Source: Candidatus Zixiibacteriota bacterium (GTDB lineage: Bacteria > RBG-13-66-14 > B26-G2 > WVWN01). From it: a stretch of 64,000 nt of DNA. The position numbers were made by a program, and so were the translations under genes. Below, in pieces: positions 3,004 to 34,656 of the stretch (positions within the stretch are counted from its first letter, which is position 1; the number at the start of each line of letters is the position of its first letter). The notes beneath the pieces were generated by a model. That model was not told the origin of the DNA. It searched no databases and worked only from the letters and a program-made list of their open reading frames with translations. The stretch covers positions 124,949 to 188,948 of the forward strand of contig JASFLY010000003.1 in the NCBI GenBank assembly GCA_050117845.1, read 5' to 3'.

Positions 3004-3390
3004 TTAGTAAAACGCCTCCAGATCTCCCTTAAGTTCGTCGATAACGGCGGAGACGGCCGCTTTATTCCCCTCCCCCTGAGCCGACAAGGTCACGATGTAA
3101 AATTCTTCTTCGGCCTCGCCGGCGTGAATGAACGGATAGAACGTGAACACGTCTCCCGTCTCGCGCCGGATCTCGAGTTCCTCAACCTGGCCCAGGCCGA
3201 CCGCGACGGTACGACGGAATATCTCGGCCGCGGCGGCCGTCAGCGCGGCCACGTTCTCCTGCCGGTCGGCGGCGGCGGTTTTCGCCCATACTAGGCCGGT
3301 CCGGCTTATCAGGTACGCAACCCGATAACCGCCGGCCCCGACCAACTTCTCCAGCGCCCGGGCGAATAGCGTTTCGCGGTAAAATACCAT
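3004..3390 (-). CDS. Roadblock/LC7 domain protein (MglB-like)
   Basis: ~128 aa; start taken at internal ATG (MVFYRETLF...) rather than the 179-aa ORF-track extension; size and hydrophobic pattern fit the Roadblock fold; two further Roadblock genes in the window. Confidence 0.6.
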   Translation of the reverse strand: MVFYRETLFARALEKLVGAGGYRVAYLISRTGLVWAKTAAADRQENVAALTAAAAEIFRRTVAVGLGQVEELEIRRETGDVFTFYPFIHAGEAEEEFYIVTLSAQGEGNKAAVSAVIDELKGDLEAFY

Positions 3391-3872
3391 ACTCGTCAGT
3401 CGGGCCGTACAATGTAGCCCGGCCCTTTCGGGGAAAGCCCCCTGGCCGCCCCTTGTTCCGCAAACATTAACGTAAATACGACCGCCTGGCAAGTTTTTTA
3501 TCGCTACCCGGCCCGGGGTTAAACGGCGATGATAAATTTGCACCGGCCTTGGTATATATGATATATTTTTATGGGTTTACTATCGTCTTTTTCGCGGGAT
3601 TCAATGTTGGCAAGGGTACTTTCTCACGTTGAGGTAACCGGTCATATAAAACGCAAATAAACGGGGAAGCATAACTGACGCGTTTTAACGGAATATATAA
3701 CGTTCGGACCCGGCCGCTTCGCCCGACTCTAGCCCCCCTCTGCGTCAACATCCCCTCCTTACCTGACGTTATATTTCTCCCGTAAAAAAGTTATGGGGCG
3801 GCGACGCCGTTAACCAGCGGCCGACCTTCACGATTTACCGGCGCCGCGCCGGGCGACGAAGAGGAAAACACT

Positions 3873-17978: not shown

Positions 17979-20900
17979 CTATTCTATCGGGAATTTTTCC
18001 TCCGGACTTATACCGTACTTTTTCATTTTGTACCTTAAGTTCGTTTCGGAAATCTCCAATTTACGGGCCGCGGCCGCTTTCACCCACCTCGCCTCCTCGA
18101 GCGCCTCGAGAATCATCTCGCGCTCCAGGTTGGCCAGAGACTCGTTCAGCGAGGAACTGCTCGTGCTACGGCCCGGCCTTCCCATTTTCCTCAGGTTAAC
18201 CGGGAGGGCATCGGGCTCGATAACGCGGCTCGACGTGGCCGTAAGGGCGTACCGTACGCAGTTTTCCAGTTCCCGCACGTTTCCGGGCCATTCGTACGCC
18301 GTCATTATCGCTACGGCCTCCGGTGAGAACCGGGGCCTGTCTTTCGCCTTCCCCTGGTAATATGTGGTCACGAAATGATTCAGGAGTTCCGGAATGTCCT
18401 CCCGGTGTTCCCGTAAAGGCGGACAACCGATAAGGAAGACGTTCAGACGGTAGAACAAGTCTTCCCGGAACTTGCCGCTGGCGATGGCCTCCGGCAAGTC
18501 GGCGTTGGTCGCGCTTACGACGCGGGCCTTCAACGGGATGGTTTGATGCGTGCGACTGCCGAGCCGGACGAACCTTTTCTCCTGGAGGACGCGGAGCAGC
18601 TTGGACTGGGTATTCATATCCATGGCCGCGACCTCATCCAGGAAGATAGTCCCGTCGCCGGCGCGTTCGAAGAGGCCGATCCTCTTGTCGACGCCGGTCG
18701 CCGTCCCCTTTTCGATCCCGAACAACTCGCTCTCCAGAAGCGCCTCCGGGATGGCCGCGCAGTTCACGCCGATGAACGGCGCGTCCGCGTTAGGGCTGAG
18801 CGTGTGGACCGTTCGGACGACGAGTTCCTTGCCGGTGCCCGACTCCCCGACGACGAGAACGTCGACGTTGGCCTGGGCCGCCGAAGCGACGGCGCCCCGC
18901 AATTCCTCCATGACCTGAGACGAACCGACGAGCAGGGGTTTGGCCGCTTCCTCCCGCGGCGCGATGCTTATGGTGGCGAAACTCTCCTCCGAGCGGCGAC
19001 GGCGCCGTTCGATTTCGTAGGCCGCGGCGCGCGCGAAGACCTGGGCGAAATTCAGGTCCTCCTCCGCGAAAAGGCTCTCGCGCTGAAGGCTGTCGAGGTA
19101 GACGACGCCCTGGAAGGCCCCGTCCCCCCCGGCGAGGGGGATACATATCAACGAACGGATTCCGTGGAGCTGGACGCTGGCGCTGTCCTTGAAACGGAAG
19201 TCCTCGGCGGCGTTGGGGCTGAACACGGCCTTCTTGGATTCGGCGACGTGGCCGATAATCGTCTTGCTTATAACGGACGCATCCTCGATGGTGGAGTCGT
19301 CGACGCCGGCGGTTCCCTTAATCCGCAGGACGTTGTTGTGCTCGTCCAGGAGGAAAATCACGCCGCGGTCGGCCTCCAGCCTTTCGGCCAGATACGACAG
19401 TATAAACTTCAGAAGATCGTCGAGGTCGGGCTGGTCGGACAGTTCCTTCAACCCGTCGGCCAGTTCCGCGAGTTTCTTCTCGCCTTCGTCGCTGTTGCGT
19501 TCCGCCATAAACAAGTTCCCTTCCAACTCGAATATTTTTACGCGGTACTTATTCACGCCAATCTCGCCGAATAGAGTCTTGGCCTTTTCGAGGTCGTTCC
19601 GCGCCTGCCTTATTATATCAACGTCTCCGGCCCCGCGTAAAGCCTTTAACTTCAATTCGGCTCGCGCCATGTAGCAGCGCCCGAGGAAATACTTGCTGCT
19701 CAGCGCCGTAAAAGTGGAGAGTGCCTGGTCGAGGTACGCTTCCCCGAGGTCGGCGTCGCCTCGTGCTCCCGAGAGCTCCCCCCGGGTAAGCAAAACCTTC
19801 GCGTGTTCCAATTTGTCCCCGGAGTCTTCCAGGTTCTTAAGACAGCGCGCCAATTCCTCCTCGGCCTCTTCGTAACGGCCGGCCAGGAATAGCACCCGGC
19901 CACGGAGGGAACGGGTATCGTCGACCTCCGTCCGGGCCCCTCGCTCCGTGAACGACTCCTCCGAACGTTTCAGGTGTTCCAACGCCTCGTCTAGTTCGCC
20001 GTTCTCGGCCGCGATTAGCGCCCGATAATAACTAGCGTACCCGGGGATCGCCCCGGCCAGGGACTCCTCGGCGTCCAACTCGTCCAGGTAGAACTCGGCC
20101 CGGCGGTACTCTCCGGCGCGTATCATGTTCGCCGCGGACCCGACGTAAATCGACGCCAGGAGTTCCGGATTGTCGATAAGTTTGCACTCCGCCTCGGCGG
20201 CCTCGAATTCCCGGGCGGCCCGTTTCACGTATCCCTGGTTGTGATATATCCGGGCCAGCCGGATGAGGGACGCGACCAGGGCGTAGCGGTCGTGGGCCCT
20301 CTTGGCCAGCTCGATGCTGCGCCGGGTCGCGTCTTCGGCCCGTTCCACGTCCGCCCTCCACAGCAGAACCTCGCCGGTCAGATTCAACGCGATGGAAGCC
20401 AGCCGGGGCTTGCCGGCCTCCTCGGCCAGTCGGGCCGTTTCGGCGAACGCGGCCAACGCGGCGTCGGCGTCGCCGGCGTAATAGGATATCGCGCCCTTGA
20501 CGTAATTCACGTACGCCACGAGGTCGGGACGGTCCACCGCCGCGGCCAATGCCTCCGCGTCTCGCGCCAGCGTTATCGCCCGGTCGAAATCCCGGTTGCG
20601 GAAGTAGGTCCAGGCCAGCAAGGCCTGTCGCAGAAACCTATCCCCCGCTTCCAACTCGTCGGGCGGGAGACCGTCCAGGTCCCGGGCCGGCGCTTCGAAG
20701 TCACCCAACACCAAACGTTCCCGCGAGAGTTGCAGCAGCGCTTTTCCGTAGCCGACCTGGCCGGGCTTCCGGCACCGCACCAGGGCGTCGTAGTAGCCGA
20801 GGGCCGAGGCGTGGTCCCCCATGGCGGAATAAGCCTCCGCCAAATCGGTGACCGCGTCCTCGTACGCCTCGCTGTACCAGTTGCCCTCGGTCGTCAGAGC

Positions 20901-22958
20901 CGCCTCCAGGAGTTCGACCGCGCGTTCGAAATCGTTCGTCCGGGCGGCGGCCCGGCCCGCCTCGAGGAGAGGGCCCCGGGCCTTGCGGCTCGACCCCATG
21001 CGGAGGTAGGCCCGGCCCTTCGCCTCCAGCGAATCGACGTCGCGGACGCCGTTTCGGTCCAGGAAGGCCACGACGCCGGCCGAGGCTTCCTCCAGATACT
21101 CCTCCCGAGCCCACTCCAGAACGTACTCCCTCACGGCGGCGTTCGCGAAGGAATACCCGGCGTCAGGCGTCTCCTCCTTGCTAATGACGCCCGCCTCCAC
21201 CAACCGGCCCAAGACGCCCCCGTCCTTAACCAACTCGCCCGGGAAATAATAGCCGTACGCCGCGGCCAGCGCCAGCGATTCCTTCTCGTTCTCCCCCAGG
21301 CGCTCGATAACGCCGACCAGATAGTCGTCCGGCGCCGGGCAGACGGTCGCGGTTTTCAGGCTGCCGTAATCGACGTGCCACCCGTCCAATCGGCGTATAA
21401 CCGTCTTCTCCGCGATAAGATGTTCTATAGTGCGGCGGAGGACGCCGGGGTTCCCTCGCGCCAGCCGCTTGACGTGGCGGGATAAAGCCGGGTCCACCTT
21501 GGGCACGCCGAGGGCGTATTCCAGATAACGCTCCGTCGTTTCTTCCGAGAAACCCTTTAATTCGAACTTCTTTACCGTTAACAACCCTTGCGGGCCGGCC
21601 AGGATTTTTTTCGTAAAGGCGCCGCCGGGCCGAGCGAGCGCGATTACGAACTTCACCCGGCCCCGGAACGGATAGTTCACGAGGCGCGTTACCGATTTCG
21701 CCGTTCCTCCGTCCTCCGCGTCGACGTTGTCGAGAGCCAGGACGGTCACGTCGTACTTCCCCGACGAGTCGTTCAGACTGCGGAGGACGTCGGCCTCGCC
21801 GGCGACGTCGTACGCCGGGGCCCCCATCAGGGCGGCCTCCAGCGAGCGCGAAATGCCGGTACCGTCGTAAGCCTCCGGGAAAGCGGCGCGGACGCGGACA
21901 CCGAGAACGCGACGCAACGCCCGTAATACGCCCTCGCCGGCGCCGCAGTCGACGTATAAAAAGGAACCCCGCTTTAACTGAGCGACCCGGCCTACTTCGC
22001 GCAAAAACGCCGTCTTCCCGACGCCCGCCGAACCCTCCACGATGAAGACCTCCGGCCCCTGATTATCGCCGGAAGGACGGAAAACGTCCGTCACCTCTTT
22101 CTCGTAACCGAAGAAACGGCCGGTCGCGAGGTCCGTTTCTATGCGCATCGTTTCGGGAAGAGGGATATCCTGAGCCCGGGCGAGTTCGGCCAGTTTCGTT
22201 ATGGCTTCGTACGCGGACGCGAACCGGTCCGCCGGATTGTGCTGGACCAACCGCGACGCGAAAACGTCCAATTCCGGGTAAACGTCCGGGGCGACCTCGC
22301 GCAAGCGTACGTAGTCGTACCTCGGCTTACGTTTGACCCGGGATATATCGTCGCCGGGCATGAACGGCAAGCGGCTTGTGATAACCCGGAAGAACAGGAT
22401 GCCGAACGAGTAAAGGTCGGACCGGGGATCGTCCATGACCCCCTGGAAGACCTCCGGCGCTATGTACTCCATGGTACCGGAGACGGGATAGCGGTCCTCA
22501 CCCTCGACCTGGCGGACAAGGCCGAAATCCCCCAGGATGAAGCGGCGCCGATCTTCAGCTTTGGCCTCGAAAACGTTACCCGGTTTCACGTCGCCGTGGA
22601 TTATGCCGCGCCGGTGGACGTAGTCGAGGGCGGACAATAGCTGCAGGGAGAAGTCGAAGAGGTATGGGAGGTTAATGTCCGGGCCGGCCTGGTCGAAGCG
22701 CCACCCGGCGTAATAATCCATCGTATAATAAATGAAATCCTGTTCTTCGCCGAAATCGTAAACGCGTACGATATTGGGATGGTCGAGGTACGTGAGGGTT
22801 TCGAACTCCCGTCTGAGAAGCTCGATGGGCCTTGCCCGGGATTTATCGACGGTTTTAATGGCGACGACCTTTTCCCGGCTACGGTCGAAGGCTTTTACCA
22901 CTTCCGACGTAGGAGTGCGGGCAATTTGTTCTATTATGTCGAACCTGTCGTCGAGCAT
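17979..22958 (-). CDS. multidomain regulator: Ser/Thr protein kinase-like + STAND/NACHT-type P-loop ATPase + TPR + GAF + sigma-54 interaction AAA+ domain + Fis-type HTH
   Basis: Kinase motifs VAIK, HGDVKPGN, DFG, APE (Gly-rich loop absent); Walker A VEGSAGVGKT; long TPR-like helical region; GAF (RGVIFLLD...GVVYLDS); EBP domain VLVVGESGTGKE, ESELFG, GAFTGA-variant GTATGV, C-terminal HTH. Confidence 0.85.
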   Translation of the reverse strand: MLDDRFDIIEQIARTPTSEVVKAFDRSREKVVAIKTVDKSRARPIELLRREFETLTYLDHPNIVRVYDFGEEQDFIYYTMDYYAGWRFDQAGPDINLPYLFDFSLQLLSALDYVHRRGIIHGDVKPGNVFEAKAEDRRRFILGDFGLVRQVEGEDRYPVSGTMEYIAPEVFQGVMDDPRSDLYSFGILFFRVITSRLPFMPGDDISRVKRKPRYDYVRLREVAPDVYPELDVFASRLVQHNPADRFASAYEAITKLAELARAQDIPLPETMRIETDLATGRFFGYEKEVTDVFRPSGDNQGPEVFIVEGSAGVGKTAFLREVGRVAQLKRGSFLYVDCGAGEGVLRALRRVLGVRVRAAFPEAYDGTGISRSLEAALMGAPAYDVAGEADVLRSLNDSSGKYDVTVLALDNVDAEDGGTAKSVTRLVNYPFRGRVKFVIALARPGGAFTKKILAGPQGLLTVKKFELKGFSEETTERYLEYALGVPKVDPALSRHVKRLARGNPGVLRRTIEHLIAEKTVIRRLDGWHVDYGSLKTATVCPAPDDYLVGVIERLGENEKESLALAAAYGYYFPGELVKDGGVLGRLVEAGVISKEETPDAGYSFANAAVREYVLEWAREEYLEEASAGVVAFLDRNGVRDVDSLEAKGRAYLRMGSSRKARGPLLEAGRAAARTNDFERAVELLEAALTTEGNWYSEAYEDAVTDLAEAYSAMGDHASALGYYDALVRCRKPGQVGYGKALLQLSRERLVLGDFEAPARDLDGLPPDELEAGDRFLRQALLAWTYFRNRDFDRAITLARDAEALAAAVDRPDLVAYVNYVKGAISYYAGDADAALAAFAETARLAEEAGKPRLASIALNLTGEVLLWRADVERAEDATRRSIELAKRAHDRYALVASLIRLARIYHNQGYVKRAAREFEAAEAECKLIDNPELLASIYVGSAANMIRAGEYRRAEFYLDELDAEESLAGAIPGYASYYRALIAAENGELDEALEHLKRSEESFTERGARTEVDDTRSLRGRVLFLAGRYEEAEEELARCLKNLEDSGDKLEHAKVLLTRGELSGARGDADLGEAYLDQALSTFTALSSKYFLGRCYMARAELKLKALRGAGDVDIIRQARNDLEKAKTLFGEIGVNKYRVKIFELEGNLFMAERNSDEGEKKLAELADGLKELSDQPDLDDLLKFILSYLAERLEADRGVIFLLDEHNNVLRIKGTAGVDDSTIEDASVISKTIIGHVAESKKAVFSPNAAEDFRFKDSASVQLHGIRSLICIPLAGGDGAFQGVVYLDSLQRESLFAEEDLNFAQVFARAAAYEIERRRRRSEESFATISIAPREEAAKPLLVGSSQVMEELRGAVASAAQANVDVLVVGESGTGKELVVRTVHTLSPNADAPFIGVNCAAIPEALLESELFGIEKGTATGVDKRIGLFERAGDGTIFLDEVAAMDMNTQSKLLRVLQEKRFVRLGSRTHQTIPLKARVVSATNADLPEAIASGKFREDLFYRLNVFLIGCPPLREHREDIPELLNHFVTTYYQGKAKDRPRFSPEAVAIMTAYEWPGNVRELENCVRYALTATSSRVIEPDALPVNLRKMGRPGRSTSSSSLNESLANLEREMILEALEEARWVKAAAARKLEISETNLRYKMKKYGISPEEKFPIE

Positions 22959-23836
22959 GGATTCCCGGTATCACAGGGTTAAGTTAACTTCGCCTGGCGT
23001 TCGGGTTATCTTACGATATTATTTTCCACTTTAATAATATATAATTTTACATAGCGCCGTCAAGGTTTTTACGCTCGTAAGCTTGGCAATAGAACGCTTT
23101 TATCTTCCGGCACTTACGACACGCGGCAGCGCCGCGGGCTCCCGATCCCGGCCTAACTCGCCGGGGCCTTCGTGAGCCGCAACCGAGGCGTTCCCATCGA
23201 AAGCTCCTCTTAGTTCAAACCGTATCATCAATACTCCTACCCTAATATATACGCGAATTCGGACCATCCGTTGCCGGAGCGCCGGAACGGATATTACGTA
23301 ATCCCCCGTTGCCTATTATAATCATTCCCGGCGTAGGCCGTAAGTGCTTAATTATCAATAGCATAGCTAGTATCGACGACAAGGGCTCCCGGGGCTAAAA
23401 TGGCCGCCGCCGCGCCAAGGTGTCACTGGACTTAATAAAAAGGCCGAGAAGCGCCGCCGATCCGGAATCTACCCGCCGCAACGCTGAACCGCTCTAACCG
23501 GATTCGCGGCAATCGCCTTTTCCCAACAGACTGTAACCTTACTTTATTGAAAATCGTCAAGTCATCGAACGCGGCGGCCTTCGTCGGAAATATAATGAAA
23601 ACTGGTATAAGAACTGAGTATTTTTATAACGGCCCTATGTCATAAATTGACATACTAGTAATATAATTATTGTACGAGAATTGGACGAGCCATAACTCTT
23701 TATGCTATAATAAATAATGGACAATTAAGTCGGCGAGGTATGACAAGATAAAACTTAGGTTAATCCTTTTTTGTAATGATGGGTTATACCCATAGGGAGG
23801 CTTGGTCTAACCGACTAAGTTAAAAGGACGGTATCT

Positions 23837-24829
23837 ATGTCCGTAAAGCGTGCGGAACGGCTCTTTCATATGATAAGTATATTAAGGACGGGACGGGGAT
23901 ATACCGGGGCCGAGTTGGCCGACGTCATGGGCGTTTCCCAACGGACGGTTTACCGAGACGTCGTCGACCTGTCGGGACTGGTGCCCATATATTACGACGA
24001 CGGGTACCGGCTCCTGTCCGATACTTTCCTGGCCAACCTCACTTTCACGCGCGAAGAATTGGTGGCCCTCAAGCTGGGCGTACAGATGCAGGCGCTGGCC
24101 GAAGCCTCTCACCTCGGCGCCGCGACCCAATCCGTCCTCGCGAAAATCGACGAACAGCTGGAACGCCGGTTCCAGGGCGAGGCGGACGACGGCGACGTAA
24201 TATCGGTCCACGTGAAGGCTCACCCGATGGGAGAGAAGACGGTGCGGGTCCTACGAGACCTGGAGGACGCGGTACGGCGCCGCCTGACCGTCGAATTCTC
24301 CTATTACACGCTCAGCCGAAACGAGAAGACCAAACGGACGGTCGACCCGTACGGCCTGACGTTCCGACGCCATAGCTGGTACCTGGTGGGCTATTGCCAC
24401 CTTCGCCACCAGGCGCGCGTATTCCGTCTCGATCGGATCTCCTCCGTTGCGGCCACGTCACACAAATTCGAACGGCCCAAGGACTTTTCGCTGGAAGAGT
24501 TCTTCGCCGATACCTGGGAGGTATTCGCCTCCGGCCCTCTGGCCGACGTCGCGTTGCGCTTTTCCCGGCACGCGGAATTCATCGCCCGGCCCACGCTGGG
24601 AGGCCGCGGCGAGTTCAACCTTGAACGAAAAAGCAATAAAATAGTATTTCGCGGAGAAGTCCCTGTAACGGACGAATTCGTACGTTGGCTTCTGACGCTT
24701 GGAGAGAACGTCGAGGTCCTCGAGCCGGCCGAACTCCGCGACAGGGTAGCTTCCCGCCATCGCTCCGCAGCCGAACTCTACGAGCCTATCGTCGCGGAGG
24801 CGGGTTCGCGAGGGATAAACACCGGGTAG
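23837..24829 (+). CDS. WYL-domain transcriptional regulator (HTH + WYL)
   Basis: AAAAGGACGG RBS; N-terminal HTH (YTGAELADVMGVSQRTVYRDV); WYL signature HSWYLVGYCHLRHQARVFRLDRI. Confidence 0.8.
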   Translation: MSVKRAERLFHMISILRTGRGYTGAELADVMGVSQRTVYRDVVDLSGLVPIYYDDGYRLLSDTFLANLTFTREELVALKLGVQMQALAEASHLGAATQSVLAKIDEQLERRFQGEADDGDVISVHVKAHPMGEKTVRVLRDLEDAVRRRLTVEFSYYTLSRNEKTKRTVDPYGLTFRRHSWYLVGYCHLRHQARVFRLDRISSVAATSHKFERPKDFSLEEFFADTWEVFASGPLADVALRFSRHAEFIARPTLGGRGEFNLERKSNKIVFRGEVPVTDEFVRWLLTLGENVEVLEPAELRDRVASRHRSAAELYEPIVAEAGSRGINTG

Positions 24830-24945
24830 GAGGCCGCTTCCCCGTCCCCGGGACGGGGCTGTTTAAGCAGGCGCGCCGCACTTTTCGGGGGATTATCGTC
24901 CGAATGCTCGAGCGACACGGGTACGTCGTAAAAAATAAGGCGGGC

Positions 24946-24966
24946 AACGAGCGCGCCTCGTTTTAC
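24946..24966 (+). terminator. weak terminator-like hairpin downstream of WYL gene
   Basis: AACGAG-CGCGC-CTCGTT followed by TTTTA; short stem. Confidence 0.3.
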
Positions 24967-25185
24967 GTTATCGATATTGTCCGTTTCCCTTCCGTTTTCC
25001 AAACCCTTACTAACGTCAAAGGCTTGTCCGAAGCCGTTACCAGGGCCGCCCCGTCGGCGTTCCACCGTACGACCGGGCGGACCGTATTGTAGCGCCGTTC
25101 CCCGAAAGCGGAACGGGCCGGCGAATAGGGCGGACGTAAGTCGCGCCCGACAATTTAAGATAGAAATTTGACAAGCGTAATGGGG

Positions 25186-25212
25186 GCCCGGGGATTACGG
25201 TCCGGGCTTTTT
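25186..25212 (+). promoter_or_regulatory. terminator/attenuator-like hairpin in the 5' leader of the RT-sensor gene
   Basis: GCCCGG-N10-CCGGGC + TTTTT ending 3 nt before the GAGGAGG RBS (25216-25222) and ATG 25231; a third CCCGGG at 25224-25229 allows alternative pairing over the RBS; TTGACA hexamer at 25168-25173. Confidence 0.4.
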
Positions 25213-25230
25213 CCCGAGGAGGTCCCGGGA

Positions 25231-28200
25231 ATGGACTTTTGTTCGGCGGACGACCTGGCGGCGGCGTGGCCCTACGCCCGTCGGGATGCCGCGGACAATT
25301 TCGTCTTCGACGTTATCGATTATGAAGACGTCAAACATAACCTGCCGCATATAATCCGGCGGCTCGAGCGCGAACTCCGGACGGACCAGTATAAACCGGC
25401 CCCCCTTCTGTCCGTCGATATACCGAAAAGGCCCTACACCATCCGCCCGGGCGCAGTCGTCTCTTTAATCGATTTAATCGTACTTTACGCCCTGGTCAGG
25501 AAAATAGCGCCGGCCCTCGACGCGAAATTATCGCCCGGCGTATTCTCCTACCGTTGGGTCCCCGAGGGAAAAAAGCCCAAGTGGTCCATCTTCTCGGAAT
25601 CGACCCAGGACGAATGCGGCATCGACGAAATCCTCCCCGCCGCGCCGTTCGCTCCGTACCCTCCTTTCGACGAGGCCGCGCCGGCGGGATGGTTCCGGGG
25701 GTGGATAGAATATCACGAGCGCGCGAAAGATTCCGCCGCCCGCTATAATTATTGCGCCGTCGGCGACGTTACAGCCTATTTCGAAAACGTCGCCGTGACG
25801 TCGCTCTTCAACCGTATAGGGGACCTCCTCGGCCCGGAGCACTCGGAAGCCCTCACCCGCCTCCGCCGCTTCTACGAGTATTGGGCCTGGCATCCAGCCG
25901 GTACGACCACGCGCGGCGAAGTCCTCCCCCAGGGCAACGATATATCGCTCTTCCTCTCGAATTTCTATCTGACGAAACTCGACGAGGCCATGGCGGCCGA
26001 AGTCCAGAACGACCCCCGCCGGTACTTTCGCTACGTCGACGACATCTGCGTCTTCACCGATACCCAGGAGCAGGCCCACCACTCCCTCCTCACCGGCGAC
26101 CGGGTGCTGCGCGATCTGGGGCTGAACCTTAATACGGAGAAGACCGGGATCGTTCCCACATCCCGCCTCTTCGACCGGGACGTGGAGCGCTGGCTCGAGG
26201 ACATGTCGCCCGTTACGGCCAACGCCGCCGAGAACGCCCGTGACTTCTTTAAGAACCGCTTCGACGCCGACGACGTCGAGAAGTGGGAACGCGCTTACCT
26301 GCGGGCCTTAACGACTCTCCAAAGAGCCGGCGACTGTTCGGTCGCCCCCGCCGCCCTTCAGGTTTTCCTGGAGAACCCCACGTACAAACTGCTGGTTAAA
26401 AATTTCGATTACCTTAGCTTCTTCGCGGAGCGTTTCCGATTCGGCGACGACGTCGCCCGCCGGATCACCGAGGGAACGTTCAACTTTCCATTCCACAAAC
26501 ACTACCTTTACCGCCTGGCTGCTTACTGCCGGCAGAACTCCCCTTCTCTCCGCGAGCAAGCTCTGGAAGAAGCCCGCGGCGACGCCGAATGGTACGTCCG
26601 AATCGCCGCGTTATACTGCCTGAACACGTTCAACCTTTCGCCCGACGAACTCGACGCCGTCGAGGAACTGGCGGGCAGCGAGGCCCACCCGCAAGTGGCC
26701 CGCGCCGCGCTCGTCGTTTTGCGACAACGGCCGGCCGACGAGGTCGCCTCGGCCGAGGATCATTTCCTCTTTACCACCGCGCCCGGCCAGGAGAACCTAC
26801 GCGAATATTTCTTCCGCCTCACGACCGAAGAGGAATTGGCGCGTGCCGTCCTCGAGCGGATCCGGAACCAGGAGGTGGCCTCGCGCGCTTTCCTGAACCG
26901 CCTCCACCAACTGGACCTCCTCAAGGGCAATCCCGCCGTCCGCGAGGAATACGGCCGGATCCTCGAACAAAAGATAGACGAATGCGACCCGGCCTGGACC
27001 CGCCTCTATAGCCGCCTCCGGCGCATCGCCGAACTGGCGTCGGTAAGTGCGTTGCGCGTTCGAAAAGCGCGCAAAATCGCCCGGGCGCAAGGCCACCTTC
27101 AAACCCTGCTGCGAAGCTCGCGCGAGGCCGTCCTTATAACCGGCCCGGGAGGAGACGTCCAGGTCTGGAACGACGCCGTGAACAAACTCCTCGGTTACGG
27201 CCGCCGCGAGGTCCGCGGGAAAGACGTGACCGACATCTTGCCTTCCCCCGGCGGCTTCGCGTCCGCGGACGAACTCACGGCATACGTCGCCGAGAACGGC
27301 GGATGGCTCGTCGAGGAGGCAACCCTTTACGAGCGGCCGGACGGCGCGCTGATTGACATTTCCACCACCTATTCCGTTATCACGGATCCCATTACGGGCG
27401 AGCCGGTCGGCCTCCTTATCCTTGTACGCGACGCGACCGCCGAAGTACGGGCCGCCCGCATCGAACAGGTACAAATCGCCACCGAACAAACCCTGGCCGA
27501 CGCCACGGTCCGGCTTGTCTCGCCGGAAGACCTGGACGCCGCCATTGAGCACACCCTGCGAGAGACGGCGGACGTGCTGAACGCGCAACGGGCCACCGTT
27601 TTCCGTTTCAGGGAAGGAACACTCGTCCTCGATGTAACCCACGAATGGTGCGCGCCCGGCGTCCCTTCGACCCGCGACTCCGGAGGAAAACTGGACCTCG
27701 GCGAACTCCCGGACGTCCGCGAGCGCTTGCATTCCGAGCGCGTCCTTTCGATATCGAACCTCTCCACTCCCAGCGCCGGGAGTCAACGGGTGATGAAGGA
27801 ACGGGGTGTCAAAGCGGCCCTCGTCGTCCCGTTCTATATTTCCGACGAGATGACCGGCCTAATAGCGTGCACCGATACGACCCGGCCTCGCGACTGGGCG
27901 TACGGCGAGGCCAATCTCCTCTTCGCCGTAACGGCGCTTATCTCGAAAGCTCTGGCGCGCCGGGAAGCGGAGGAGGAAAAGCTGGTGAGCGAGGTCCGCT
28001 ACCGGGCCGTCGTCGAAGACCAAACGGAGCTGATATGCAGATGGCGGCCCGACGGGACCCTTACCTTCGTTAACGAGGCTTACGGCCGGTATTTCGGGAA
28101 ATCGCCCGGCGAACTGGTGGGCCGGAGTTTCATCCATTTTATCTCGGAGGAGGATCGCGAAACCGTCGAGGCCGAATTCGCGTCTCTGGGTCCGGACAAA

Positions 28201-31200
28201 CCATCCTCGACGCATGAACATCGCGTTACGACGCCGGCCGGTGAAGTCCGTTGGCAGCAATGGACCAACCGCGTCATCATTGACGAGCACGGCGCAATAT
28301 CGGAATACCAATCCGTAGGCCGCGACATTACGGAGCGCAAACTCGCCGAGGAAGCCCTCGACTTCGAGCGCCGCCAACTCTTGTCGATCTACGATAGCGT
28401 CGAGGAAGTCGTTTACGTCGCCGACCCCCGGACCCACGAAATCATATACGCCAACGAGTACTTGAAATCGCTGTACGGAAAAGACATGGTAGGCGGCGTA
28501 TGTTACCGGGAATTCCAGGGGCTGGAGGCCCCCTGCGATTTCTGCACGAACGGAATAATACTCGAACAAAAAGGCAAGGCGTACCGTTGGGAATTCCACA
28601 ACGAAATACTAGACAAGTCCTTCCTGTGCACCGACCGGATAATTAAATGGCCCGACGGCCGGGACGCCCGGATCGAAATCGCCATAGACATCAGCGACCG
28701 CAAAACCGCCGAAGAAGCTCTGCGGAAGAGCGAAGAGGAATTCCGCGCGCTCGCGGAGCAGTCCCTCCAGGGAGTTACCCTCGCGACGGAGGATCGGACC
28801 ATCTTCGCTAATCGGGCTTTTTACAACATCACCGGCTACGAGCCGGACGAGATAATCGGCCTGACGCCGGGCGAAGTCGCCACCCTAATCATCCGGCCGG
28901 AGGACAGGGAAACCGTTAAAAAGAACTTCCGGCGCCGCATGGACGGAGAAAGCGCTCCTTCGCCGTACGCCGTGGGAATACTCCATAAGAACGGCTCCAC
29001 CCGGTGGGCCGAGTTATACTGCACGATCGTCGATATCGGAGGGCCGCCGGCGAATCTTACCACGCTCGTCGACATAACCGAACGGAAGCGGGCCGAGGAA
29101 GCGATCAGGGAAAGCGAGGTCAAGTACCGAACGTTGTTCGAGAACTCGCCGGACGCTCTTACGATACTCGACACCCGCGCGGTCATTAGCGACCTGAACC
29201 GGGCGACCGAAGAACTAACGGGGTACTCGCGGGAAGAGCTACTGGGGCGGCCCTTCGTAGAAATCCCGTCACTACGGGCCCAAAAACGGGCCCGCCTGCG
29301 GAAACTGCATTCCGACCTCGTCGCGGGCCGTGAGGCCGAACCGTACGAATTGGAAATCGTACGACGGGACGGGACCCGTCGATGGGTAAACGTTACGGTC
29401 GCCGCAATTAAAAAAGGGTCGGACCTTATAGGAACGCAGCTGATAGGCCGCGACGTTACCGAACGCAAACTCGCCGAAGAGAAGATAAAACGCCGTTTGG
29501 AATTTGAGGGCGTAGTCGCCCGCATCTCGTCGCGCCTCGTGGCTCCGGCGGACGTCGACCGGGCCGTAAACGAATCGTTGGCCGATATAGGCCGGTTCCT
29601 CGGAGCCGGCCGAGTACCACTATTCCTATTGAGCCGGGACGGCAGCGAGATGTCCATCAGCCACGAGTGGTGCGCCGCCGGCGTAAAAAGCCTGATCGGA
29701 GAGCTGCAAGGGGAGCCCACGTCGGGAATCCCGTGGTGGACGGACCGACTCGGCGGGGGGGAAGTGCTGCACATACCGGACGTATCGCGAATGCCGCCGG
29801 AAGCCGCCCCGGAACAGAAAATCCTGGAGGGACAGGGGATTAAATCCATCCTCGTATTGCCCGTCGAGATCGGCGGGAGTTTCAGCGGCTTCGTCGCGTT
29901 AGACAACGTCGAGGGAACCGGCGGCTGGGACGTGGACGACGTGGAACTCCTCCGCGTTATGGCCGCGGACCTCGGCCGGGCCTTCGAACGACAACGAGCG
30001 GAAAGCATCCTCCGGGAAAACGAGGAACGTTACCGCGACCTGGTGGAAGGTTCCCATGATCTCGTCCAAAGCGTCGCCCCCGACGCCCGCTTCCTATTCG
30101 TCAACCGGGCCTGGCTCAGGACGATGGGCTACGCCGAAAGCGAACTTCCGAACCTCACCCTTTTCGACGTTATTCATCCGGACTACGTCGGGCACTGCCA
30201 GGAATTGTTCCAGCATGTTATGCGCGGCGAAACCGTTAGCGATATCTCGGTCAAGTTCGTGACGAAGGACGGCCGCGAAATCATCCTCGACGGCACGGCG
30301 GGGCCGCGTTTCATGAACGGCGAAGTCGTGAGCACGCAGGGTTTCTTCCACGACGTAACCGAGCGTAAACGCGCCGAAGAAAAACTCAAGCGCCATAGCG
30401 AAGAAATAGCCGCCGTCAGCGAACTGGCCATAGAACTCGCCGGCGTCGATACGAGTGAAGAGATGTTCCCCCTTATCGCCCGCCGCCTCCGGGAGCTTAC
30501 CGGCGCTTTGGCCGTCCTGACGACGTCTTACGACTACGAGGCCGATGAATTGGCCGTCAACGCCGTCGAAGCCGACGTTAGCACCCTGGACAAAACGAAC
30601 GATATCCTGGGCGCGGAGCTTTCGACGATACGCTTCCCGTTTCCGATATATTCCCGCGAAGCCCTGGCTTCCGAACACGTCGCCGTAACGACGGGCATCC
30701 CCCACCAGGCCCACGCCGTCATTCCGAAAAACGCGTGCCGAGTAATCGAGGAAGCCTTCGGCATCGGCGACGTTTACATTTTAACGTTCCACTTCGGCGG
30801 GGACATGATCGGCGCTGCCGGCATTATTATGCAGCGAGAGACTACCCGGCCTTCCGTCGATACGCTGGAGGCCGCGGCCAACACGATCGCCACCACCCTC
30901 CGGTCCAAACTCGCGGAGGAAGCCCTGGTCGCCAGCGAGCGCGAGAAGACGACCATACTCGAATGCGTGGACGATATGGTCGTTTTCTGTAATTCGGAAA
31001 TGGAAACGGTCTGGGCCAATCCCGCCGCGGCCGCGTGGCACGACATGACGCCCGAAGAAATGGTAGGCCGCCGTTGCTACGAAGAACGCTACGGCCGGAC
31101 CGATCCCTGCGAGGACTGCGCGGAAGTCGAAGCGCTGAGAACCGGCGAACCCCGGGAAATCGAAACCACGTCCCCCGACGGCCGGTCATGGTACAACCGA

Positions 31201-34200
31201 AGCATACCCGTCACCGACGATTCGGGCGCCGTCGTCGGCGTCGTAACCACCACGCAGGAAGTAACGGCTCGTTACCACGCCAGGGAAACGTTAAAACAAC
31301 GGGCGACGAACCTGGCCGCGATAAACGACCTGGCCGTCGAGCTGGCGTCGGCTCCCTCCGCCGACGCGATCCGCCGGATAGCCGGCGACCGGTTGAGAAC
31401 GTTGGGCGGCGCCCTGGCCGCGATAGTCACGAGTTACGACGAAGAGGCCGGAGTTTTCGTCGTCCGCCATATTTCCGCCCCCGGCGACGTTTTCACCAAA
31501 GCCAATAAAATCCTGAACGGCACCGTTTACGACATTCGTTGTCCCGTTGACGACGACGCGTACGAAGAGATCCTGGCCCGCCGGGTTAAACCATACGAAG
31601 GCGTTTACGATCTGGCGTTGGGCGCCATTCCACGAAAATTGGCGACCGCCATCGAAAAAGCCCTCGGCCTCGGCGAAATAATCGCCGCCGGGTTCCGGCA
31701 CGGGGGACGCGTACTAGGCGGAATCTCCGTCGTCATGCCGGAAGGGCGCCCCGCGCCGGACGCCGAAATACTCGAAAACTTCGCCAACGTCGTATCGTCG
31801 GCGCTCGTCCGGCAGGCCGCCGACGAATGGCTCGTAAAAAGCGAACGGGAGAAATCGGCGATACTGGCGAACATGACCGGCCTCGTCGCCTACATGAAAC
31901 CGAACCTCGAAATCGTGTGGGCGAACGATGCCGCGGCCGACTGGGCGGGCCTCACGCCGCGAGAGATGGCCGGCCGGTACTGCTACGACGTCTGGTACGG
32001 ACGGACTAAACCCTGTAAGCGTTGTCACGTCGTACGCACGGTGGAAAGCGGCGAGGCCCAAACGTTCGAGACCGATTTCAGAGACGGCAGCGTCTGGCAC
32101 GTCCAATGCAATCCGGTACGTAACGCCGCCGGAGAAGTCGTGGGCATCGTCGAAACCTCTACGGACATCTCCGCCCGGAAACGGGCCGAAGAAAGCCGCC
32201 GCGAAACGGAAGCGCGGTACCGCGCGCTCGTCGATACCATGAATGATGGATTCATCGCGCACGACGAGCGGGGCGTAATCACGTACGTCAACGACCGTTT
32301 GTGCGAAATACTCGGCTTCCCGCGCGAGAATATCGAAGGCCGGCCGATGGACGACTTCCTCGATCGGGAAAACGCGGCAACCCTGCGGGAACGACGCCGC
32401 CTTAAAAAACCGCGGGCGGAAGCGTACGAACTTTGTTGGACAGGCGAAGGCGGCCGACGCGTATACACCGTAGTCTCGCCGGGAACCCTACCGAAGACCG
32501 AAGGCCGGTCCGCCGGCGGTTACGCCACGATTGCCGACATTACCGTCCGTAAACGAGCGGAAGAAAACCTCCAACGTCGAAGCGACGATATCGTAGCGGC
32601 CAACGGCCTTATCCTCGAACTCGCCGCGGCCCGCACGCCCGCGGAGGCCGCAGAGATACTTTGCGAAGGGTTGAAACGTCTCACCGAAGCACTCGCTATC
32701 GCCCTTTTGAAATACGACGTTAATACGCGCGAACTGGTTATCGAATACGTAGCCGCGGAAAACGACGTCAAATCCGAATCCGGGAAAATACTGGGGGGCG
32801 AACTGTCCTCGCTCCGCTTCCCGTTGGACCGAGCCGGGGCCGACGAACTCGTAAACCGCCGCGTCGCGGCAACGAAGGGTCTCCCCCGCAACGTTTACGG
32901 CGGTGTTCCGCGAAAGGACGTCCGCGCCTTCGAAGAAGCCCTGGGCTTGGGTGAAGTCTACGTCCTACCGCTCCAGCACCGGGAAGGACTGATGGGGACG
33001 GTCGCCATAGTGACCCGGGACGAAAACCCGCCCCTCTGGCCCGGAGCGGTTGAGGCCGTTGTCGCCGCCGCGGCGGCAGTACACGAACGCGTCGAAGCCG
33101 CCGAAAAACTCCGCGCGAGCGAGGAAACGGCGCAGGTCCTGCTGAACGCGCCCGCTAATTCGGCGTTCCTTCTCGACGCCGAAGGTACGATCCTCGCTTT
33201 CAACGAAACGACGCGATGCCGAACCCGCCTCGGCGCCGAAGATTTGCGAAGCGCGTCGTTGTGGGAAATCCTCCCGCCCGCGGTCGTCGACGCCCGGAAA
33301 GGCCAACTCGAAGAGGTCGTCCGTACAGGCCGCCCCGTCCATTTCGAAGAGAAGCGACCAGGCTCGGCCTTCGAAAGCTACTTCCACCCGATACGAGGGC
33401 CGCACGGCGTTACCAACGTCGCCCTATTTTCATGGCCCGTAACTCTCCGAAAAGAAATCGAAGAGAAACTGGCCGAGCCGAAAAAGGACTTCCGGCCCGC
33501 AGCCGAGGCTTCGCCGGTCGCGGCGTTGGTGCTAAACCACAGCGGGGGAATCTCCTGGGTTAACAAGGCCGCGCTAAGCCTATTCGGCTACGCCAAGAAA
33601 GGCCAAATGAAACGACTGCCGCTCCGGGAACTCTTCCACGCCGAGGACGAAAAAGAGATGGAGCGGGTAATGGACCTCGCGGCCGGTAGCGCTACGACGT
33701 ACGCCGGATTTACGGCTCTTACCGTCAACGGCGAAAGGCGGCCGACCGTCGCCCGGGCGGCGCCCGTATTCGAGGACGGTAAACGCCGGGGGGTACGGGT
33801 ACTCGTGGACGACGTAAGCGAACGCGTACGTACCGCGGAGGCCCTGGCCGCCGGCGTCGACCCGACGGAACTGCTGTCGACGCTAACGAGTTCTTACGCC
33901 GTTGTCGCGGACGGCAAGGGAGCCGTAACGGCCGTGAATACGAATACCGAAACGCGGCTCTGCAAACCGGCGGACGACGTTATCGGCACGCATTTCGAAT
34001 TTACCGTTCCGCGTGGGACGGAGGAGTCCAGGAAGCAGGCCTTCGAAGAAACGCTACGTTCGGGGAAAGCCGTGCTATTCGAGGACGAAACCACCGCCGC
34101 GACGTACGAGAACGACCTCTACCCCATACTAGACGGCGAGGGTAACGTCTCCCGCGTAGCGTTCTTCAGTCGCGACGTAACCGGGTCAAAAGCGACCGCC

Positions 34201-34656
34201 GAGGCCCTCAGCGCGACCGAAGCGAAGACCCGCCTCCTAGCCAACCAAATACCGGCGATTATTTGGACGACCGACGACGAACTCCGGATAACGTCCCTGC
34301 ACGGCGGCGGCCTGGCGTTTATCGAGACGCCGCCCGCGGAACTCCGGGGTAAAACGCTACCCGAGCTCTATGGCACCAACGAGGTCACGTCCACGGTCAT
34401 TGCGGCCCACCGGCAAGCGCTCCGGGGCGAAGTGGCGACTTACGACCAGGAAATCGGCTCTCGGACATTCCAGGCTACGGTGGAGCCGTGTAGGGACGGA
34501 GAGGGCCGCGTAGTCGGATGCGTCGGCGCGGCCCTCAACGGCCTGACGCTTTACGGCAAAATAAACGGTCCCGCCCGGACCGGCGGCGATCCCGGCGAGA
34601 AGTCAACGTCGCCGGAGTACCCGCCTCGACCCAAGCCGAGCTCGACGGGGTCCTAA
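25231..34656 (+). CDS. giant (~3141 aa) reverse transcriptase - PAS/GAF sensor-array fusion protein
   Basis: Start taken at ATG 25231 (GAGGAGG RBS 8 nt upstream) rather than TTG 25168; RT motifs in canonical order: NYCAVGDVTAYFENV, LPQGNDISLFLSNFYL, YFRYVDDICVF (YVDD at 26032-26043); then helical domain, then >=10 PAS units with DITERK(R/L)AEE-type linkers and ~5 GAF-like units; no kinase/GGDEF/EAL/HD/DNA-binding output. Confidence 0.85.
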   Translation: MDFCSADDLAAAWPYARRDAADNFVFDVIDYEDVKHNLPHIIRRLERELRTDQYKPAPLLSVDIPKRPYTIRPGAVVSLIDLIVLYALVRKIAPALDAKLSPGVFSYRWVPEGKKPKWSIFSESTQDECGIDEILPAAPFAPYPPFDEAAPAGWFRGWIEYHERAKDSAARYNYCAVGDVTAYFENVAVTSLFNRIGDLLGPEHSEALTRLRRFYEYWAWHPAGTTTRGEVLPQGNDISLFLSNFYLTKLDEAMAAEVQNDPRRYFRYVDDICVFTDTQEQAHHSLLTGDRVLRDLGLNLNTEKTGIVPTSRLFDRDVERWLEDMSPVTANAAENARDFFKNRFDADDVEKWERAYLRALTTLQRAGDCSVAPAALQVFLENPTYKLLVKNFDYLSFFAERFRFGDDVARRITEGTFNFPFHKHYLYRLAAYCRQNSPSLREQALEEARGDAEWYVRIAALYCLNTFNLSPDELDAVEELAGSEAHPQVARAALVVLRQRPADEVASAEDHFLFTTAPGQENLREYFFRLTTEEELARAVLERIRNQEVASRAFLNRLHQLDLLKGNPAVREEYGRILEQKIDECDPAWTRLYSRLRRIAELASVSALRVRKARKIARAQGHLQTLLRSSREAVLITGPGGDVQVWNDAVNKLLGYGRREVRGKDVTDILPSPGGFASADELTAYVAENGGWLVEEATLYERPDGALIDISTTYSVITDPITGEPVGLLILVRDATAEVRAARIEQVQIATEQTLADATVRLVSPEDLDAAIEHTLRETADVLNAQRATVFRFREGTLVLDVTHEWCAPGVPSTRDSGGKLDLGELPDVRERLHSERVLSISNLSTPSAGSQRVMKERGVKAALVVPFYISDEMTGLIACTDTTRPRDWAYGEANLLFAVTALISKALARREAEEEKLVSEVRYRAVVEDQTELICRWRPDGTLTFVNEAYGRYFGKSPGELVGRSFIHFISEEDRETVEAEFASLGPDKPSSTHEHRVTTPAGEVRWQQWTNRVIIDEHGAISEYQSVGRDITERKLAEEALDFERRQLLSIYDSVEEVVYVADPRTHEIIYANEYLKSLYGKDMVGGVCYREFQGLEAPCDFCTNGIILEQKGKAYRWEFHNEILDKSFLCTDRIIKWPDGRDARIEIAIDISDRKTAEEALRKSEEEFRALAEQSLQGVTLATEDRTIFANRAFYNITGYEPDEIIGLTPGEVATLIIRPEDRETVKKNFRRRMDGESAPSPYAVGILHKNGSTRWAELYCTIVDIGGPPANLTTLVDITERKRAEEAIRESEVKYRTLFENSPDALTILDTRAVISDLNRATEELTGYSREELLGRPFVEIPSLRAQKRARLRKLHSDLVAGREAEPYELEIVRRDGTRRWVNVTVAAIKKGSDLIGTQLIGRDVTERKLAEEKIKRRLEFEGVVARISSRLVAPADVDRAVNESLADIGRFLGAGRVPLFLLSRDGSEMSISHEWCAAGVKSLIGELQGEPTSGIPWWTDRLGGGEVLHIPDVSRMPPEAAPEQKILEGQGIKSILVLPVEIGGSFSGFVALDNVEGTGGWDVDDVELLRVMAADLGRAFERQRAESILRENEERYRDLVEGSHDLVQSVAPDARFLFVNRAWLRTMGYAESELPNLTLFDVIHPDYVGHCQELFQHVMRGETVSDISVKFVTKDGREIILDGTAGPRFMNGEVVSTQGFFHDVTERKRAEEKLKRHSEEIAAVSELAIELAGVDTSEEMFPLIARRLRELTGALAVLTTSYDYEADELAVNAVEADVSTLDKTNDILGAELSTIRFPFPIYSREALASEHVAVTTGIPHQAHAVIPKNACRVIEEAFGIGDVYILTFHFGGDMIGAAGIIMQRETTRPSVDTLEAAANTIATTLRSKLAEEALVASEREKTTILECVDDMVVFCNSEMETVWANPAAAAWHDMTPEEMVGRRCYEERYGRTDPCEDCAEVEALRTGEPREIETTSPDGRSWYNRSIPVTDDSGAVVGVVTTTQEVTARYHARETLKQRATNLAAINDLAVELASAPSADAIRRIAGDRLRTLGGALAAIVTSYDEEAGVFVVRHISAPGDVFTKANKILNGTVYDIRCPVDDDAYEEILARRVKPYEGVYDLALGAIPRKLATAIEKALGLGEIIAAGFRHGGRVLGGISVVMPEGRPAPDAEILENFANVVSSALVRQAADEWLVKSEREKSAILANMTGLVAYMKPNLEIVWANDAAADWAGLTPREMAGRYCYDVWYGRTKPCKRCHVVRTVESGEAQTFETDFRDGSVWHVQCNPVRNAAGEVVGIVETSTDISARKRAEESRRETEARYRALVDTMNDGFIAHDERGVITYVNDRLCEILGFPRENIEGRPMDDFLDRENAATLRERRRLKKPRAEAYELCWTGEGGRRVYTVVSPGTLPKTEGRSAGGYATIADITVRKRAEENLQRRSDDIVAANGLILELAAARTPAEAAEILCEGLKRLTEALAIALLKYDVNTRELVIEYVAAENDVKSESGKILGGELSSLRFPLDRAGADELVNRRVAATKGLPRNVYGGVPRKDVRAFEEALGLGEVYVLPLQHREGLMGTVAIVTRDENPPLWPGAVEAVVAAAAAVHERVEAAEKLRASEETAQVLLNAPANSAFLLDAEGTILAFNETTRCRTRLGAEDLRSASLWEILPPAVVDARKGQLEEVVRTGRPVHFEEKRPGSAFESYFHPIRGPHGVTNVALFSWPVTLRKEIEEKLAEPKKDFRPAAEASPVAALVLNHSGGISWVNKAALSLFGYAKKGQMKRLPLRELFHAEDEKEMERVMDLAAGSATTYAGFTALTVNGERRPTVARAAPVFEDGKRRGVRVLVDDVSERVRTAEALAAGVDPTELLSTLTSSYAVVADGKGAVTAVNTNTETRLCKPADDVIGTHFEFTVPRGTEESRKQAFEETLRSGKAVLFEDETTAATYENDLYPILDGEGNVSRVAFFSRDVTGSKATAEALSATEAKTRLLANQIPAIIWTTDDELRITSLHGGGLAFIETPPAELRGKTLPELYGTNEVTSTVIAAHRQALRGEVATYDQEIGSRTFQATVEPCRDGEGRVVGCVGAALNGLTLYGKINGPARTGGDPGEKSTSPEYPPRPKPSSTGS

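Follow-up and report, generated by a model that had tools for sequence, protein, structure and literature searches.

The gene at positions 25231–34656 on the forward strand of a 64,000-nucleotide stretch of contig JASFLY010000003.1 (hereafter the window), from a metagenome-assembled genome (MAG) of Candidatus Zixiibacteriota, a sediment bacterium, encodes a genuine and conserved single polypeptide in which a reverse transcriptase (RT) module and an alpha-helical repeat (alphaRep) domain are followed by a long array of PAS and GAF sensor domains. As judged from its motifs and from a structure model, the N-terminal part is a catalytically competent RT-type DNA polymerase of class 1 of the UG/Abi family, resembling group UG21. 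We propose that this polymerase synthesizes DNA without a template and is gated by the PAS/GAF array, with the control having shifted in cis, a reading to which, taken as a whole, we give an even chance.

The coding frame is one open reading frame (ORF) of 9.4 kb without interruption, specifying 3,141 amino acids (aa) and a stop codon. A ribosome-binding site, GAGGAGG, lies 8 nt 5' of the ATG at 25231, which is the same start as in all homologues, and 63 nt separate the stop codon from a convergent glycosyltransferase gene. The GC content (0.60–0.64) and the GC content at third codon positions (0.71–0.78) are steady across the junction between the RT and PAS regions. The NCBI record (MGD8717875.1, in the MAG, on a 209-kb contig) is labelled 'PAS domain S-box protein' only, a public label that conceals RT enzymes of this kind. 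The Pfam scan of the whole protein gives RVT_1 at residues 163–308 (3.2e-14), twelve PAS_4 stretches and two GAF domains, and no kinase, cyclase, phosphodiesterase or DNA-binding domain. An earlier reading made from the sequence alone (the sequence-only reading) had described a single ORF with an RT module and then a PAS/GAF array, and this is borne out by the ORF, Pfam, PADLOC and the structure model. The three RT motif strings that it had pointed out are all present, with YVDD at residues 268–271 (nt 26032–26043), and its count of at least 10 PAS and about 5 GAF-like units becomes 13 PAS and 5 GAF-fold units in our map. These sensor domains and one enzymatic domain share one polypeptide, as in the one-component signal-transduction proteins.

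The RT fingers and palm are encoded at 25231–26220 (+; residues 1–330), with the motif A aspartate D179, LPQGND at residues 232–237, YVDD and the motif D/E sequence EKT, and the alphaRep, or HEAT-like, helical domain is encoded at 26221–27045 (+; residues 331–605). The latter domain is the hallmark of the class 1 UG/Abi RTs, in which, UG21 included, an alpha-helical HEAT-like (alphaRep) domain comes after the RT, according to the UG/Abi survey (PMC9226505). Both marks of class 1, the RT motifs including the catalytic YxDD and the C-terminal alphaRep domain, are present. With PADLOC, residues 4–509 match positions 2–482 of the 503 in the RT_UG21 model (E 6.7e-72), clearly ahead of the next-best models, RT UG32 (6.9e-43) and UG23 (1.6e-42). 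The RT and alphaRep module exceeds the UG21 model in length by about 100 aa. The AlphaFold2 model of residues 1–612 (mean predicted local distance difference test score, pLDDT, 84.6; predicted template-modelling score 0.86) consists of an RT core and an all-helical part at 316–611, with one predicted disordered loop (residues 111–154) that holds a Pro-Tyr conserved in the clade (Y143, in FAPYPPF). Its full-length structural matches over the RT and alphaRep are DRT6, DRT4, AbiA, AbiK and Abi-P2. The sequence-only reading had named the lack of an RT fold in residues 60–330 as what would overturn it; both the profile search and the structure prediction find the fold there. As for marks of retrons, group II introns or diversity-generating retroelements, no Rfam match was found in 13000–36000 and no maturase or endonuclease domain by Pfam, and in PADLOC the UG groups rank far above the retron or group II models. 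The fusion thus has in common with UG21 and the other class 1 enzymes (AbiK, Abi-P2, AbiA, DRT4/UG15, DRT6) the RT fingers and palm with YVDD followed by the alphaRep/HEAT-like domain, whereas it differs from them by 2,500 aa of added PAS/GAF domains, by the sigma-54/activator control of its relatives and by the vertical inheritance of its locus.

The rest of the protein (residues 606–3141) was mapped with profiles built from the protein's own units and with Pfam on separate segments. A helical connector (residues 606–622) and PAS1 (623–738) are encoded at 27046–27444 (+) and GAF1 (767–909) at 27529–27957 (+), PAS1 and GAF1 both being orthologous in all fusions. The distal array occupies 28000–34533 (+; residues 924–3101) and comprises, in order, PAS2 (924–1036), the weak, cysteine-containing PAS3 (about 1050–1160; nt 28378–28710), PAS4 (1171–1285), PAS5 (1299–1412), GAF2 (1441–1586), PAS6 (1601–1712), the first copy of a 179-aa unit that we call U179 (1727–1905; 30409–30945, +), PAS7 with cysteines (1906–2014; nt 30946–31272), U179 copy 2 (2029–2207; 31315–31851, +), PAS8 with cysteines (2208–2316; nt 31852–32178), PAS9 (2330–2440), U179 copy 3 (2455–2633; 32593–33129, +) and PAS10–13 up to residue 3101. 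The last 40 aa (residues 3102–3141; 34534–34653, +) are a low-complexity tail of Pro, Gly and Ser with no domain. U179, which is the terminal domain in two relatives, has no Pfam match, and its model (pLDDT 85.6) takes a GAF fold that matches the GAF domains of phytochromes at a TM score of 0.64 (E 6e-10). The GAF fold rules out U179 as a hidden output domain, so that every residue is accounted for and the polymerase is the sole enzymatic domain, in agreement with the sequence-only reading, which had recognised no other output.

PAS3, PAS7 and PAS8 carry the motif C-x10-11-C-x2-C, for example GRYCYDVWYGRTKPCKRCH, which may be a metal or redox site. The fusion shares with the one-component PAS/GAF proteins (multi-PAS histidine kinases, cyclases, PpsR-type regulators) the tandem PAS/GAF units, the helices of the DITERKxAEE type, the PAS units with the cysteine motif and the rapid duplication and shuffling of units; it differs from them in that its sole enzyme domain is a nucleic-acid polymerase, placed N-terminally, with no HisKA/HATPase, GGDEF/EAL, cyclase or HTH domain. 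The cysteine motif occurs also at the C-terminus of one of the other fusion proteins (P0025) and in the product of 3873–6236 (+), a 787-aa protein with an N-terminal HTH_17 domain, four PAS domains and a C-terminal GAF domain. The cysteine-motif PAS of the latter protein is 36–42% identical to PAS7 and PAS8, with WHVQCNPVR common to both, and the protein is a second case in this genome of an output placed N-terminally and sensors placed C-terminally. Near-perfect matches to the sigma-54 consensus (TGGCACGTxCAATGCA) at 5250–5265 and 32095–32110 (+) lie inside the PAS coding sequence for WHVQCN, and they are coding coincidences and not promoters.

The fusion recurs. In 1.84 billion representatives scanned exhaustively with HMMER, the long proteins recovered were that of the window itself and four others, of 1,745, 1,951, 1,195 and 1,177 aa, with the RT and alphaRep at residues 1–605, PAS at about 620–735 and GAF at about 760–908. 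A metagenome scan added a protein of 3,053 aa from Loki's Castle sediment (L016), whose RT is 68% identical to that of the window and in which Pfam finds no output domain, and a partial gene (L017:40–2325) for RT, alphaRep, PAS1 and GAF at 64% identity, with one in-frame stop just upstream of motif A that could be a sequencing error, a pseudogene mark or recoding. In all there are seven fusion proteins from independent assemblies and differing samples, so that at least six other assemblies carry the fusion (P0021/L015, P0022/L003–5, P0023/L006, P0025/L007–9, L016 and L017; 1,177–3,053 aa). A scan of genome contigs yielded three distant relatives and no more, and the sole match in a word-index protein search with residues 531–940, which span the junction, was an irrelevant histidine kinase. 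The order RT-alphaRep-PAS1-GAF1 is collinear in all fusions, with 58% identity over 923 aa to P0021 and 53% over 1,176 aa to L016; five of six fusion proteins have a linker between alphaRep and PAS1 that is free of indels, and the last helix of the structure model (590–611) runs off its C-terminal end toward PAS1. The standalone homologues, of about 620 aa and 36–44% identity, end at window residue ~605. The worry of the sequence-only reading about a chimera or a frameshift at the junction can be dismissed on account of the junction with its gap-free linker shared among these independent assemblies, and the search for synteny in related genomes, which it had called for, finds both the junction and the chromosomal neighbourhood conserved. 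The in-frame stop in the RT of L017 and a 617-aa protein (P0004) that ends 29 nt short of its contig end would speak for an artefact, be it a chimera of the assembly, two genes read through as one or a pseudogene in decay. We consider such an artefact to have hardly any probability, given the uninterrupted 9.4-kb ORF, the identical junction in six or more assemblies made independently from different samples, the uniform composition and the conserved catalytic motifs.

In a neighbour-joining tree of 590 columns, covering the UG21-like subfamily only, the fusions form one clade (F, bootstrap 75), which is sister, with bootstrap 98, to a clade of standalone, activator-linked RTs (S). P0004 is nested within clade F, and its contig stops 29 nt past the stop codon. 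The fusion is real, old and of a single origin, and its distal array evolves by duplication and shuffling of units. At 41–68% identity, the proteins of clade F all keep the motif A Asp, LPQGND, YVDD and the motif D/E Lys (EKT), implying that the polymerase of clade F is under purifying selection, which speaks against a purely structural role of the RT. By contrast, in clade S there is Glu in motif A and the motif D Lys is gone, and one sub-lineage is without QGN and YVDD; this motif loss in the paralogous lineage shows how relaxed selection appears in this family.

In the loci of the relatives, a 1,672-aa activator, preceded in some of them by an HTH-WYL-WCX gene, is followed by the palindrome CCGCCAAWWTTGGCGG, a sigma-54 promoter, a 48-aa ORF and the RT-PAS gene, with convergent polysaccharide genes (GT4, GT4, AsnB, Wzy) downstream. 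The activator has the architecture Pkinase-AAA_16-TPR-GAF-Sigma54_activat-HTH_8, that is, a kinase-STAND-GAF sigma-54 activator. The palindrome is perfect and lies about 115–165 nt upstream of the sigma-54 promoters in both S- and F-type loci (L007:7384, L012:9537, L016:9101 and 9179, L018:7979, L025:9535, L035:7120), with two copies in L016 even though no activator stands beside its gene; the kinase-STAND-GAF activator probably binds at this palindrome. In both clades, the stretch from the sigma-54 promoter to the RT gene contains an ORF of 48–49 aa (L001:7756–7905, L004:7071–7217, L008:6980–7126, L013:258–407) for a peptide with a signal peptide, an AxA cleavage site and a PPPPP-rich mature part, which could be a secreted signal tied to the activator. 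Clade S shares this layout of activator, palindrome, promoter, peptide and RT. The activator encoded in the window is 55–56% identical to the S-type and 40–42% identical to the F-type activators, and the activators have diverged together with their RT partners.

In the window, the F module consists of the WYL gene and then the RT-PAS gene only. The HTH_11-WYL-WCX regulator is encoded at 23837–24829 (+), directly upstream of RT-PAS on the same strand, and orthologues with 62–67% identity precede RT-PAS in L003/4, L015 and L016. No sigma-54 promoter, palindrome or peptide ORF is found in 22900–25300, and tblastn between the WYL and RT-PAS genes finds no remnant of an F-type activator or peptide. 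Among the fusions, the activator is full length with the proteins of 1,177 and 1,951 aa, truncated with that of 1,745 aa and absent with those of 3,053 and 3,141 aa, which suggests that the control moved from transcription into the protein itself. The truncated case is in L015 (2258–5493), where a 506-aa GAF-sigma54-HTH activator lies upstream of the 1,745-aa RT-PAS gene and looks like a remnant of the long activator; the activator homology in tblastn begins about 200 nt upstream of the 506-aa ORF, and a 1.7-kb gap follows the WYL gene. The 878 bp between the divergent activator and WYL genes of the window (22959–23836) are AT-rich (GC 0.47), with five sigma-70-like promoter matches against 1.4 expected, no Rfam hit and, as homology in other loci, only a 41-nt match in L015.

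For a conserved RNA, alignment of five upstream regions of the RT genes, and of the window with L016, gave nothing, and a blastn comparison of three intergenic regions with the full set of loci and the Rfam scan of 13000–36000 gave nothing near the RT-PAS gene; the one conserved element in the intergenic comparison is the activator palindrome of the paralogous module. The locus is syntenic at one chromosomal site beside the polysaccharide cluster, and its neighbours have diverged to the same extent as the RT (WYL 62–67%, GT4 52–62% and RT 45–68% identity). With the loci regulated by WYL proteins (CapW, BrxR, DriD, PafBC) the locus has in common the HTH-WYL-WCX gene immediately upstream on the same strand. 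It differs from them in that the predicted target, with WYL control read from the position of the gene, is itself the likely producer of single-stranded DNA (ssDNA). The WYL regulators bind ssDNA and act on neighbouring genes for defence or for the response to damage (PMC11662680, PMC9186387, PMC11804915), the HTH-WYL-WCX regulators such as CapW controlling defence systems and sensing ssDNA (PMC11662680).

The characterised class 1 enzymes AbiK, Abi-P2, AbiA, DRT4 and DRT6 carry out template-free ssDNA synthesis primed on a protein tyrosine (PMC12783706), and the rule given in a 2026 preprint is that class 1 enzymes are untemplated while class 2 enzymes are templated by non-coding RNA (PMC13174585). 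Because class 1 enzymes behave in this way and because no conserved RNA adjoins the gene, untemplated, protein-primed DNA synthesis would be expected for the fusion rather than cDNA synthesis; we rate this expectation at an even chance or a little more and no higher, because the analogy spans very distant relatives. Based on our model, the N-terminal module would polymerise DNA with no RNA as template and would use a residue of the fusion protein as primer, for which Y143 in the disordered loop is a candidate. The invariant PAS1-GAF1 pair, joined by a helix of fixed length that would continue the last alphaRep helix, would answer intracellular ligands or redox by setting the activity or the oligomeric state of the polymerase, with further inputs coming from the variable distal PAS/GAF units; the protein would thus belong to the one-component signalling proteins and have DNA synthesis as its output. 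In the relatives, transcription would also be gated by the kinase-STAND-GAF sigma-54 activator, and in this genome the activator layer would have been lost, leaving the WYL regulator, with the control shifted to the in-cis array. The gating is plausible from the architecture, since PAS1-GAF1 is orthologous, the linker is fixed, there is no other output and the window has a second protein with an N-terminal output (HTH_17-PAS4-GAF). Of the signal-gated cDNA synthesis put forward in the sequence-only reading, the gating part stands as plausible on that architecture, and the cDNA part is not supported, the enzyme being of class 1 with no conserved RNA beside its gene.

Several points weigh against this proposal. 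The structural alignment to the characterised class 1 enzymes is only 10–14% identical, and Y143 does not fall in one alignment column across the clade. In most signalling proteins the sensors lie N-terminal to the output, and in the fusion this order is reversed. The standalone relatives have no PAS/GAF at all, yet they work. In PAS1 and GAF1 no cofactor or ligand motif was recognised, and the relation between array size and activator loss comprises five lineages only. Past residue ~1166 the array is not collinear even with that of the closest relative, L016, so no specific set of signals is conserved and the array could serve assembly rather than sensing.

This last point leads to a different view of the array, in which the polymerase is active and the array is a dimerisation or scaffolding arm that governs how the protein assembles, where it localises or what it binds, or else is a part that is itself under surveillance, as a target of phage factors would be. 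It would be consistent with the shuffling of the distal arrays among close relatives (4 to 18 domains), with the lack of a recognised cofactor motif, with the oligomeric state of the solved class 1 RTs (hexameric DRT6, DRT9; AbiK) and with the ability of multi-PAS regions to drive oligomerisation (PMC3949515). However, PAS1-GAF1 is orthologous and fixed in position in all fusions, as a transmission module would be, three PAS domains carry C-x10-11-C-x2-C, which is suggestive of metal or redox chemistry, and the entire 2,500-aa array stays an open reading frame; we regard a scaffold as unlikely, with perhaps one chance in a handful. Still less probable, if not greatly so, is that the RT copies a specific RNA into cDNA under the gating of the PAS/GAF array. 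The RNA-templated UG/Abi enzymes belong to class 2 (PMC13174585), and the fusion has the alphaRep of class 1; the upstream regions of seven loci do not align, there is no Rfam hit, and downstream there is no room for such an RNA.

With regard to the biological role, the serious contender is a classical abortive-infection or DRT type of anti-phage defence, in which a WYL repressor would free expression upon infection and the RT would make toxic DNA. The family is UG/Abi, a CapW/BrxR-like HTH-WYL-WCX regulator is adjacent (PMC11662680), a more distant relative (L010) adjoins a type I restriction-modification system, another (P0003) is fused to HNH, and the paralogous RT of the window is followed by a gasdermin-like gene. 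On the other hand, the vertical inheritance at one site by the polysaccharide cluster, with neighbours diverged like the RT, sets the locus apart from mobile defence islands. Control through sigma-54 and an activator, like sensing by PAS/GAF domains, is characteristic of physiological regulation; no other locus has the gasdermin-like gene; and the UG/Abi survey (PMC9226505) gives the link of UG21 with defence as inconclusive. We put anti-phage defence somewhat short of an even chance and lean slightly towards a domesticated function in stress or growth control over a mobile anti-phage system. WYL regulators bind ssDNA, which the enzyme encoded next door probably makes, and this would also allow for feedback or signalling between the two. 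In the fullest form of this reading, the protein would not be an immune effector but would make DNA as a second messenger: redox or metabolite cues received by the PAS/GAF array would lead to untemplated ssDNA, which would be read by the adjacent WYL regulator to reprogram transcription, the pathway having been inherited vertically in Zixibacteria from an activator-controlled, Abi-like module whose control moved into the enzyme. We consider this pathway improbable, a long shot at about one in ten.

The UG/Abi RTs write unusual DNA, such as random ssDNA, homopolymers and new genes. To our knowledge, how they are switched on is understood just for a few phage-triggered cases. If our reading is true, the clade would be a natural system with a small-molecule or redox trigger instead of a phage protein, by which the allosteric control of a class 1 RT would become directly testable in vitro; it would also suggest a physiological, non-defence use of class 1 RTs and would provide a model for DNA writers that a ligand or light could switch. 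The sequence-only reading had held that PAS/GAF arrays are undescribed for prokaryotic RTs, and our full-text literature search likewise found no such fusion. The list of domains fused to class 1 RTs (methylase, protease, primase, HTH, HEPN) includes no PAS in the survey (PMC9226505). The 'large' class 1 fusions described there are AbiA-HEPN, UG9-protease, UG10/DRT7 with primase, UG25/35 with methylase and UG32-HTH. They share with the present fusion the habit of an RT core with an extra domain in only some members of the clade, here with standalone relatives of ~620 aa; by contrast, they add catalytic effector or DNA-binding domains, whereas the fusion here adds purely sensory PAS/GAF domains. 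The novelty lies in a class 1 UG/Abi RT that carries its sensors in cis and that was ancestrally controlled by sigma-54 and an activator.

It is noted that the window also holds a paralogous module of the S type, whose RT lies 8 kb from the RT-PAS gene; the sequence-only reading had mentioned neither this RT nor the sigma-54 activator and WYL genes. Its activator, of 1,659 aa with the architecture Pkinase-AAA_16-TPR-GAF-Sigma54_activat-HTH_8, is encoded at 17979–22958 (−), divergent from the WYL gene, and belongs to this module and not to the RT-PAS gene. It is followed by the palindrome CCGCCAAAATTGGCGG at 17929–17944, a probable activator site about 145 nt upstream of the sigma-54 promoter and conserved upstream of RT genes in 10 other loci, by the sigma-54 promoter TGGCACGGGAATTGCG at 17771–17786 (−), by a 49-aa ORF at 17588–17737 (−) whose product has a signal peptide and ends in a Pro-rich tail, and by a UG21-like RT of 575 aa at 15762–17489 (−; RT_UG21 5.8e-23; 40% identity to P0008). 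The active site of this RT is destroyed, with QGN changed to ADGAS and YVDD to FRDK. The last gene of this sigma-54 operon (14775–17944) encodes a gasdermin-like protein of 301 aa at 14775–15680 (−; PADLOC bGSDM 2.8e-13; PDB 7n51 8.5e-4), with no adjacent protease. A conserved pairing of gasdermin and dead RT was rejected, since neither the sister locus L013 nor any other locus has the gasdermin-like gene; the dead RT and the pore-former may together make up a separate system. An S-type pair of activator and RT is also present in a Zixibacteria MAG (L012). GCA_004196295.1 (SDBS01; L001/L028 and L016) is a whole metagenome assembly of Loki's Castle sediment and not one genome, so that its S- and F-type modules need not come from the same cell; this window is the only evidence that S and F occur together in a genome.

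Of the other genes in the window, 2357–2869 (−), 12 kb from the S module, encodes a 170-aa protein without Pfam or PADLOC hits that is 47% identical to a 160-aa ORF directly after the standalone RT in L001 (L001:10118–10600). Genes for Roadblock/LC7 (MglB-like), DUF4388 and small Ras-like GTPase (MglA-like) proteins are found at 3004–3543 (−) and 13110–14501 (+), and two V4R-domain proteins are encoded at 9808–10999. These genes suggest a regulatory neighbourhood of the polarity or motility type.

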